The notes under the pieces were generated by a model. That model did no database searches. It saw only the letters and a list, made by a program, of their open reading frames with translations, and had not been told where the DNA came from. 64,000 bases of DNA, taken from the sequence record OR228459.1; one strand, written 5' to 3'. Each line of letters starts with the position of its first letter. Positions within the stretch are counted from its first letter, which is position 1. The stretch is from Klebsiella phage fENko-Kae01. A program made the translations under genes and the position numbers. Of this stretch, positions 60,481 to 60,566 are shown piece after piece.

Positions 60481-60566
60481 GGGTACAGTCTTGGGCGTCT
60501 AGTAAACTGGTGTTCATAACCAAGAACTTTAATGGAAAGATGTGGTTCGATTCCACGATGTACTCC
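60481..60566 (+). other. tRNA-like element (type II-like) with candidate UCA anticodon; non-canonical D-arm
   Basis: acceptor GGGTACA/TGTACTC (one G-U), T-arm TGTGG-TTCGATT-CCACG, long variable hairpin CTTT-AATGG-AAAG, 4-bp stem TGGT/ACCA around GTTCATA; D-arm does not fold canonically. Confidence 0.35.

Follow-up and report, generated by a model that had tools for sequence, protein, structure and literature searches.

A conserved tRNA-like RNA element without D and anticodon arms in Klebsiella phage fENko-Kae01 and related jumbo phages

The locus and the element

We analysed a 64,000-nt stretch of Klebsiella phage fENko-Kae01 (sequence record OR228459.1), hereafter the window, in which a 264-nt gap on the plus strand, with an adhesin open reading frame (ORF) on its 5' side and a small conserved ORF on its 3' side, contains an element resembling a transfer RNA (tRNA). 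A reading made from the letters alone, hereafter the sequence-only reading, had placed a tRNA-like element at 60481–60566 and proposed that it carries the anticodon UCA. The window matches four Salmonella jumbo phages of ~340–350 kb, Munch, PHA46, 7t3 and SE_PL, at 98.6–98.8% over the 2 kb around the element, and the 301 nt centred on it are 100% identical in all four. None of these four records has an RNA gene annotated there, and in the PHA46 record a hypothetical protein is annotated across the stretch. A Pfam scan of the neighbouring ORFs gave the YadA anchor of the adhesin as its sole match. The two neighbours and the parts of the element are as follows:

59219–60436, + strand: adhesin ORF with YadA anchor (Pfam match) and collagen repeats, the upstream neighbour
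60481–60568, + strand: whole tRNA-like RNA from position -1 through the encoded CCA, 88 nt; 72.7 bits (E ~1e-15) with the family covariance model R1
60481–60488, + strand: G-1 (60481) and 5' acceptor strand GGUACAG (60482–60488), pairing with 60558–60565
60489–60494, + strand: 5' strand UCUUGG of a stem that we call S1; in homologues a single linker base (mostly U) is followed by 6 bp
60495–60519, + strand: S1 interior, 25 nt here and 25–29 nt in homologues, consensus RCG(A)UYNAGUARAC-N-GG-N-GURYRUAA
60520–60525, + strand: 3' strand CCAAGA of S1, pairing with 60489–60494
60526–60540, + strand: hairpin at the variable-arm position, CUUU/AAAG here; 3–6 bp with loops of 3–11 nt in homologues
60541–60557, + strand: T arm with stem UGUGG/CCACG and loop UUCGAUU; G53-C61 and GGUUCGAnUCC invariant
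60558–60568, + strand: 3' acceptor strand AUGUACU (60558–60564), C73 (60565) and encoded CCA (60566–60568), followed by A/U-rich sequence
60701–60919, + strand: small conserved ORF of 72 aa, the downstream neighbour

By inspection and comparison, a tRNA-like element is indeed present, although not in every part as it had been described. The acceptor-type stem of the sequence-only reading, GGGTACA (60481–60487) with TGTACTC (60559–60565), can be formed; the register common to the homologues pairs 60482–60488 with 60558–60564 and adds G60481:C60565, with a G7xA66 mismatch in this phage. Because CCA is encoded at 60566–60568, the 3' boundary is better set at 60568. The canonical T arm (TGTGG-TTCGATT-CCACG, 60541–60557) is there, and the remark that no D arm can form applies to this sequence and to every homologue. 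The variable hairpin also exists (CTTT/AAAG, 60527–60539); it is weak and AU-rich. The anticodon stem, TGGT/ACCA around the loop GTTCATA, was said to be the only solution at its position; it can be drawn in this one sequence, but CCAAGA (60520–60525) pairs better with TCTTGG (60489–60494), and the minimum-free-energy fold uses the latter pairing. The proposed anticodon UCA (60514–60516) lies within the S1 interior, which probably forms an irregular inner helix (G60502-C60515, A60504-U60513 and C60507-G60512) with an invariant GG (60509–60510) in its capping loop.

Standard tools give little indication of such a gene. ARAGORN makes no call at the element either by default or with -ps (its default lowered thresholds), nor in any of the 12 homologues described below, and Rfam at gathering thresholds has no match there. 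With Rfam in E-value mode on the 301 nt, the selenocysteine tRNA (tRNA-Sec) family comes out on top with 19.3 bits (threshold 47, E = 0.19), and the fold is about as stable as that of shuffled sequence (z = -0.4). Judged from this sequence alone, the element would exceed chance only marginally, and we regard its homologues as what makes the case decisive.

Comparative support for the fold

Phage homologues in GenBank were unsuitable for covariation analysis, because only the four near-identical Salmonella phages carry the element. We therefore used the 72-aa downstream protein as a query, fetched the contigs encoding its homologues, and sought the element at the same locus. The search in IMG/VR gave three contigs, and a large protein collection gave 15 variants of the protein with 68–100% identity. 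Diverged copies of the element were found at 12 distinct loci in metagenomic and SRA phage contigs, at the same site just upstream of the promoter P2 (see below), and with the element of this phage they form a comparative set of 13 sequences from one phage clade. The sequences were aligned by hand and with MAFFT, a covariance model was built, and the sequences were realigned to it; the realigned set is fitted to the model, which favours structure, and the hand alignment yields the same per-pair counts.

The alignment supports four helices, namely an acceptor stem (1–7:66–72, plus -1:73), the 6-bp S1 that starts one base after the acceptor, a hairpin at the variable position and a 5-bp T stem. 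Standard pairs occupy 93.4% of the cells, compared with 73.0 +/- 1.7% in column shuffles, none of 500 of which reached the observed value, and with 43–51% when the 3' partners are slid by 1–3 columns. Both sides have changed in 18 of the 22 pairs. RNAalifold recovered the same helices independently, except for the acceptor pairs 6:67 and 7:66, and gave a similar fold for the S1 interior. All eight acceptor pairs have both-side changes across the homologues, as in GGUACAG/AUGUACU (this phage), GAUUGUA/UGCAAUC, AGUGAAG/CUUCAUU and GGCGAUG/CUUCGCC. S1 is paired in 98.7% of its cells and its pairing is kept in all 13 sequences, with double changes in five of its six pairs (UCUUGG/CCAAGA, UUCCAG/CUGGAA, UUCUAG/CUAGAA, CCUCGG/CUGAGG). 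The hairpin at the variable position is 100% paired over three modelled pairs, two of which have double changes, and its loop sequence is not conserved. This pattern of compensatory change shows a conserved four-way-junction RNA that combines the "top half" of a tRNA and a CCA end (usually C followed by encoded CCA) with S1 in place of the D and anticodon arms, and that has no anticodon.

Conservation is distributed unevenly along this RNA. The stem columns have a mean pairwise identity of 59%, which rises to 80% for the S1 interior and to 93% for the T loop, where GGUUCGAnUCC is invariant in all 13 sequences; for the element as a whole the figure is 68%, compared with 82% for the neighbouring gene. 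Such a pattern is typical of a structured RNA under selection and not of a decaying gene. The S1 interior contains ~16 invariant positions within its 25–29 nt, and it probably folds into the irregular inner helix mentioned above (GUA..CN / NG..UAC), which is 95% paired, has one covarying pair (CG/AU/UA) and is capped by 3–5 nt with the invariant GG. A UAA/GAN internal-loop motif was considered for S1 and rejected, as it is not kept in Munch and two of the homologues (L083, L089). Within the interior, alignment columns 27 and 39 (window 60505 and 60514) show an A-to-G change in AGUA[A/G]AC that co-occurs with an A-to-G change in GU[A/G]CAUAA in three loci (L009, L088, L089); the pattern is not Watson-Crick and reflects either a lineage effect or a tertiary contact. 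At the 3' end, N-CCA is encoded in 10 of the 13 sequences, the others having UCA (L091) or CAA (L008 and L086). Position 73 is C in 10 sequences, pairing with G-1, and a -1:73 pair is present in 12 (G:C in 10); in the ten members with G-1:C73 the stem can reach 8 bp, with CCA directly after it.

The family model R1 separates members, which score 72–103 bits, from the best real tRNAs (type-II Leu and Ser), which score ~33 bits. It finds a single family match in the 64-kb window, none in the adjacent 21 kb of Munch and none at the corresponding loci of GAP32, BF and Yen9-04. DNA pattern scans of viral, metagenome and bacterial-genome collections yielded no further members: the viral scan returned three known contigs and unrelated matches, two of which were checked and are a permuted transfer-messenger RNA (tmRNA; L012) and a tRNA-Arg (L033), the metagenome scan returned already-known contigs only, and none of nine matches in bacterial genomes fits the model. 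Literature searches found no description of this element. The family had not been recorded before and is restricted to Munch-like jumbo phages; the kind of RNA is known, and this is a new family, or variant, within it. Within this range the element is missing from a close relative (L087) at the same junction, and the sister genera RaK2, K64-1, A4, GAP32, XbC2, Yen9-04 and BF share the downstream promoter, the mRNA leader and the small gene without having it; the element is therefore accessory. A true tRNA-Leu(CAA) lies near the locus in BF, GAP32, XbC2 and Yen9-04.

Three side observations concern the distribution of such elements. The locus is mosaic when the window is compared with L085, and in other pairs too: with L085 the small gene shares 91% identity and the tRNA-like element just upstream of it 60%, the latter being of a different subtype, which points to recombination or to unusually fast turnover of the element. 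A repeated element of ~100 nt, with a T arm GGTTCGAATCC, AGTAAAC and GATAAC, occurs in L011 (7217–7313) and about 12 other contigs of IMG/VR 3300045988; it sits in phage tRNA clusters, is not called by ARAGORN in L011, the single contig checked, and may be another non-canonical tRNA or tRNA-like RNA. In Serratia phage BF (L007, 1259–1383), a 125-nt "tRNA-Pseudo" is annotated in the same tRNA region; with 15.9 bits under R1 it is not a member of the family, and it shows that unusual tRNA-like genes occur commonly among these phages.

Promoters and the neighbourhood

The element is flanked by two promoter-like sites, and the downstream one belongs to a motif that recurs in the window:

60447–60465, + strand: G5/C5 hairpin GGGGG-TTGACATTG-CCCCC after the adhesin stop codon, without a U tract and with the -35 hexamer of P1 in its loop
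60452–60480, + strand: P1, sigma-70-like, with TTGACA (60452–60457), a 17-nt spacer and TAAAAT (60475–60480), an 11/12 match
60579–60618, + strand: P2, a copy of the recurrent phage promoter motif (AAAATCTTGGGACAAAC ... TGTGATATAATAAA) that drives the downstream small gene and is not part of the RNA
9038–9076, 40703–40735, 44410–44446, 46737–46774, 53219–53252, 60579–60618, 62237–62275 and 62596–62633, + strand: copies of the phage promoter motif

P1, which the sequence-only reading had described as a TTGACA-17-TAAAAT element abutting the 5' end, ends on the base before the element. It had also been remarked that this arrangement conflicts with normal transcript architecture; we agree, and the juxtaposition is itself conserved, in that a P1-type site with at least a 10/12 match ends exactly on the base before position -1 in 8 of the 13 sequences. 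A start from P1 would fall at about 60486–60488, around N5–N7 of the 5' acceptor strand; transcripts from P1 would thus begin inside this strand and could not form the acceptor stem, although pairs 1–4 covary strongly. A G/C-clamped hairpin with TTGAC in its loop occurs in nine sequences, L094 has TTGATA in the loop, and L010 has a hairpin without TTGAC. L088 differs in having a 12/12 site 13 nt upstream, from which a short leader would result. Two loci, L008 and L086, have neither promoter nor hairpin, and the element directly follows the stop codon of an ORF; together with L010 and L094 these are the loci without a strong P1. A homologous site, TTGACA-17-TAAGAT, is present in Serratia phage BF without the RNA. 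From the two loci without an upstream promoter and from the placement of P1, we infer that full-length RNA must arise at least partly by read-through from upstream.

The recurrent motif of P2, CTTGGGACAAA-N10-TGTGATATAAT, lies downstream of the element and cannot transcribe it. In the general form AAAAyCTTGGGACAAA-N10-11-TGTGATATAATA, with a GGGACA-type -35 and an extended -10, it has at least eight copies on the plus strand of the window. Some copies stand immediately ahead of real tRNA genes; the -10 of the one at 44410–44446 ends 8 nt before the tRNA-Ser at 44454, which would be almost leaderless. Pairing of a 3' tail UCCCAA of the element with UUGGGA in P2 was considered and is explained by this generic promoter motif.

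The remaining observations on the neighbourhood stand apart from the question of what the element is. The slot between a small membrane-protein gene (58954–59118) and the hairpin with P1 (window 59119–60436; loci L083–L096) is a hot spot for insertions: a YadA-anchor/collagen adhesin occupies it in the window phage and in L096, a 173-aa ORF in L085, L091 and L092 and a 176-aa ORF in L084, it is empty in L083, L088, L089 and L094, and its content is independent of the tRNA-like subtype. The adhesin of the window has its own 12/12 promoter at 59154–59182. The mRNA leader of the small ORF (window 60621–60700) is ~73% conserved across RaK2, K64-1, GAP32, BF, Yen9-04 and A4; it has a 5' hairpin, CAUC-GACG-GAUG, which is followed by a second hairpin, CTCTCAATGATTGAGAG, and its UGUAAAAC is complementary to GUUUUACA (60689–60696) between the Shine-Dalgarno sequence and the AUG, a structure that may serve translational control. 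ARAGORN calls five other tRNAs in the window, the same five as Rfam at gathering thresholds, and CCA is encoded in four of these genes. The exception, tRNA-Met(CAT) at 54764–54840, has an atypical T loop, GTTCGACTC, and at 47 bits the lowest Rfam score of the five. The window diverges from Munch at 62906–63120, right after tRNA-Ser (62814–62905); a tRNA-Tyr(GTA) is found there at 62980–63063 (Rfam 57 bits), and at this position ARAGORN finds no tRNA in Munch, where the protein gene CPT_Munch_435 is annotated.

Nature of the RNA and its possible roles

One close likeness is to type-II tRNAs (RF00005; for example phage tRNA-Leu and tRNA-Ser). As in these, a 7-bp acceptor abuts a 5-bp T stem, GGUUCGAnUCC is present (the T loop fits UUCRANY), a hairpin occupies the variable position, a discriminator and an encoded CCA follow, the length is 88–99 nt and the gene lies in a phage tRNA region. 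Unlike these, the element has one base rather than two between the acceptor and the next stem, a single 6-bp stem encloses the would-be D-loop-to-anticodon region, and U.U mismatches are frequent in the acceptor. A D arm (3–4 bp with a GG loop) is absent, since the candidate CYGG partner has anti-covarying mismatches and consensus folds give S1, and so is an anticodon arm with a 5-bp stem, a 7-nt loop, U33 and a purine at 37. With tRNA-Sec (RF01852) the element shares the extra -1:73 pair in 12 of the 13 sequences, a 6-bp stem after the acceptor and a long variable arm, and tRNA-Sec is the best sub-threshold Rfam family in three members (26 bits in L096 and 24 bits in L094 besides this phage). 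In the alignments to that model, however, the whole anticodon arm is deleted in L094 and its loop is empty in L096, so the match stems from the long acceptor, the variable arm and the T arm. The scores of 19–26 bits stay below 47; instead of the 8/5 branch and the 6-bp D stem with a 4-nt loop of tRNA-Sec, the element reaches an 8-bp acceptor only if -1 pairs with 73, its 6-bp stem encloses 25–29 nt, and neither UCA nor G73 is conserved (the discriminator varies among C, G, A and U). tRNA-His has G-1:C73 directly before CCA and an 8-bp-type acceptor, to which the element is similar; because G-1:C73 is not invariant, a conserved histidyl-tRNA synthetase identity is unlikely. Conserved synthetase identity was rejected more generally, as G3:U70, A73, G73 and G-1:C73 are each non-conserved.

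Several non-decoding RNAs borrow parts of the tRNA fold. YrlA and other bacterial Y RNAs are non-decoding mimics of the tRNA acceptor, T arm and variable arm that are bound by Ro/Rsr through a motif, GNCGAAN0-1G, near the 5' end; YrlA of M. smegmatis is cut by RNase P and receives CCA, and phage examples exist (PMC4201824). The element resembles them as a non-decoding mimic, Salmonella as a host encodes Rsr, and the motif is loosely echoed by GRCGAUU in the family and GGCGUCU in this phage. It differs in that YrlA has a D arm and its ends lie in the Ro-binding stem, whereas the ends of the element form the acceptor stem. Among the neighbouring ORFs scanned against Pfam, where the YadA anchor was the sole match, no Ro60/TROVE gene appeared. 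The Rfam Y RNA and YrlA families do not match it at E <= 10, and with only a partial echo of the motif we rejected an identity as a YrlA/Ro RNA. The tRNA-like domain of tmRNA likewise has an acceptor with CCA, a T arm, no anticodon and a GG segment in place of the D arm; the element, however, is 88 nt long, has no mRNA-like reading frame or pseudoknots and does not conserve G3:U70, and neither ARAGORN nor Rfam finds a tmRNA at this position. Processed mimics that do not decode also include the MHV68 vtRNAs/TMERs, MALAT1 mascRNA, the C4 antisense RNA of phages P1 and P7, which is matured by RNase P and has a CCA end, and the stable RNAs C and D of phage T4. These share a concept, a tRNA-like fold that borrows RNase P or Z and the CCA enzyme, so that a small RNA or an upstream 3' end is set free or stabilised. 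The element has no sequence or structural homology to any of them, its S1 around a conserved interior is distinct, and no antisense target was found.

Four explanations compete with that of a processed, non-decoding mimic. The element could be a decoding tRNA of an unusual kind with a non-canonical body, either the opal suppressor (UCA) or Sec-like tRNA of the sequence-only reading or one that reads CAU. Its acceptor, T arm and CCA are intact, tRNA-Sec is its best Rfam family, UGGU/ACCA can close the 7-nt loop GUUCAUA in this phage alone, and the 7 nt before the S1 3' strand are UUCAUAA here, which we take to match the anticodon loop of Met/Ile2-type tRNAs. Against this, the proposed anticodon stem is paired in 75% of cells across the 13 sequences, compared with 73.8% in shuffles, with its closing pair in only five. 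The triplet is UCA in the Munch group only; the closest relative (L083) has ACA there, L089 has GCA, and the others lack it. A 7-nt loop occurs in few members, most have 5 nt in its place, and no arm has a conserved 7-nt anticodon loop, so the RNA would be unable to decode. Even in the proposed loop, position 37 would be U and position 32 G. The recommended Infernal checks fell short of the thresholds, with RF00005 scoring below the 19.3 bits of tRNA-Sec. An anticodon other than UCA or a pseudogene score, which the sequence-only reading had named as speaking against it, is what ARAGORN returned at relaxed settings: with thresholds at 80–60% of default and in intron and mitochondrial modes, it gave only "possible pseudogene" folds built on other stems, a tRNA-Ser(AGA) and a tRNA-Ile(AAT) with a 71-nt "intron", which we take to be artefacts of the lowered thresholds. 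TGA is also an ordinary stop codon in the window. Among the 81 ORFs of at least 80 aa on the plus strand of the window, 65 stop with TAA, 14 with TGA and 2 with TAG, a TGA stop with more than 50 open codons behind it occurs just once, and there is no sign of TGA-split genes. We regard decoding as highly unlikely. Decay to a pseudogene without present function, for example from a type-II tRNA such as the tRNA-Leu(CAA) near the locus in relatives, would fit the scores in the pseudogene range, the tRNA-rich region, and the finding that real type-II tRNAs are the best non-family matches to the family model. But compensatory substitutions have kept four helices across lineages in stems that are only 59% identical, the T loop and positions throughout the S1 interior are invariant, and Munch retains a separate tRNA-Leu(UAA). 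The pseudogene reading is thus already disfavoured by covariation, and we give it hardly any credence. Descent from a type-II tRNA as such is plausible. Descent from the syntenic tRNA-Leu(CAA) of BF, XbC2 and Yen9-04 in particular is only weakly indicated: the D-loop-like GCGAUUCAGUARAC loosely resembles GCGAAAUUGGUAAGAC, and these tRNAs are the highest-scoring matches to the family model outside the family, but a sequence-only profile gives them no specific score.

The other two explanations concern the position of the element. What is conserved might be the P1 region with its initially transcribed sequence, the fold being the leader of P1 transcripts that regulates the downstream gene. P1 does abut the element in eight sequences and has a homologue in Serratia phage BF, but transcripts from it would begin too late to include acceptor positions 1 to about 5, where covariation of the pairs is strong, four loci have no strong P1, and the strong, recurrent P2 lies between the element and the gene; a role as P1 leader therefore seems very unlikely. 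The main rival is a cis-acting processing or "punctuation" element that recruits RNase P and RNase E. The upstream mRNA would then have its end right behind the G5/C5 hairpin and be kept apart from the early gene that follows, and the released RNA would have no function. The element does lie at the 3' end of the upstream transcription unit, directly before P2, with a stable hairpin 15 nt upstream in most homologues, and the upstream slot receives differing cargo genes; RNase P needs only an acceptor/T minihelix with CCA, and the acceptor sequences are free to vary. Such a signal would not need the S1 arm, however, yet the S1 pairs covary and the S1 interior is second only to the T loop in conservation, and L087 and whole sister genera do without the element at the same junction. 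Punctuation explains where the element lies and not why S1 is conserved; we consider it possible, though on the whole unlikely.

We favour, with moderate confidence, the reading that the locus is a gene for a small, non-decoding tRNA mimic that is probably excised by RNase P and ends in CCA, with the S1 arm as its working part. Its sequence features are those of the class of RNase P-processed mimics, as CCA is encoded in 10 of the 13 sequences and a U-G dinucleotide marks the 5' boundary in all 13. The RNA would be transcribed as the tail of an upstream transcript, as its place directly after an ORF in two homologues suggests. With its acceptor/T minihelix and CCA it would be recognised by host RNase P and cleaved between the first G and the conserved U before it, and the A/U-rich sequence after CCA would be suited to trimming by RNase E and exonucleases. 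The usual 3' trimming of tRNAs, or CCA repair, could then release a stable RNA of ~88 nt, which TruB, TrmA and the CCA enzyme may handle. In this mechanism the tRNA-like top half would provide processing, stability and access to the tRNA-handling machinery, and the S1 interior, with its ~16 invariant bases and GG at the tip of an irregular arm, would be the surface that binds a protein or RNA partner. The earlier suggestion of a tRNA mimic used for regulation is supported only as to the kind of RNA.

Several points weigh against this picture. The 13 sequences come from one phage clade, so that common descent accounts for part of the covariation counts; acceptor pairs 5:68 and 6:67 often have U.U mismatches, and the fold is not thermodynamically exceptional (z-scores of -1.45 to +1.35). 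The abutting promoter-like site in eight sequences, whose transcripts would lack the 5' acceptor strand, is a puzzle for a simple tRNA-like gene. RNase P cleavage, the CCA end and stability are expected from resemblance only, and RNAduplex found no positionally conserved site for the S1 interior within +/-1.5–2 kb of each locus. The S1 interior and the mRNA leader downstream have GUAAA(A)C in common, a likeness that was rejected, as it is not conserved across the homologues.

Such a mimic may act as a decoy or sponge, as an adaptor or chiefly as a signal for processing. One specific form, which we put forward tentatively and think rather improbable as it stands, is a dedicated CCA-ended decoy or adaptor that lacks an anticodon and is directed toward host or phage proteins that act on tRNAs, with S1 giving specificity. 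Targets might be, for example, defence toxins that modify or cut the acceptor ends of tRNAs, or a phage enzyme, and the fast compensatory turnover of the stems and the exchange of subtypes between otherwise 91%-identical neighbourhoods would then be marks of an arms race. As acceptor sequence and discriminator vary, one conserved synthetase identity is unlikely; in a variant of the decoy reading, the G-1:C73-CCA members might be histidylated and serve as a non-ribosomal aminoacyl carrier or a sink of charged tRNA.

Phage tRNA genes are seen as weapons against host defences that target tRNAs, and to our knowledge the known phage anti-defence cases are decoding tRNAs. The element described here keeps all features for tRNA handling, the acceptor, the T loop and CCA, and has the decoding half replaced by a different conserved arm. 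The comparative data make it more interesting than the scores of standard tools had suggested, and standard tRNA finders and Rfam miss such genes. Should it prove to be only a "punctuation" signal for RNase P, it would nevertheless add one of the few documented examples of tRNA-like mRNA punctuation from a phage. If expressed, it would be a natural tRNA mimic in an enterobacterial phage with a genetically tractable host, through which a new RNA-protein interaction or anti-defence mechanism could be reached.

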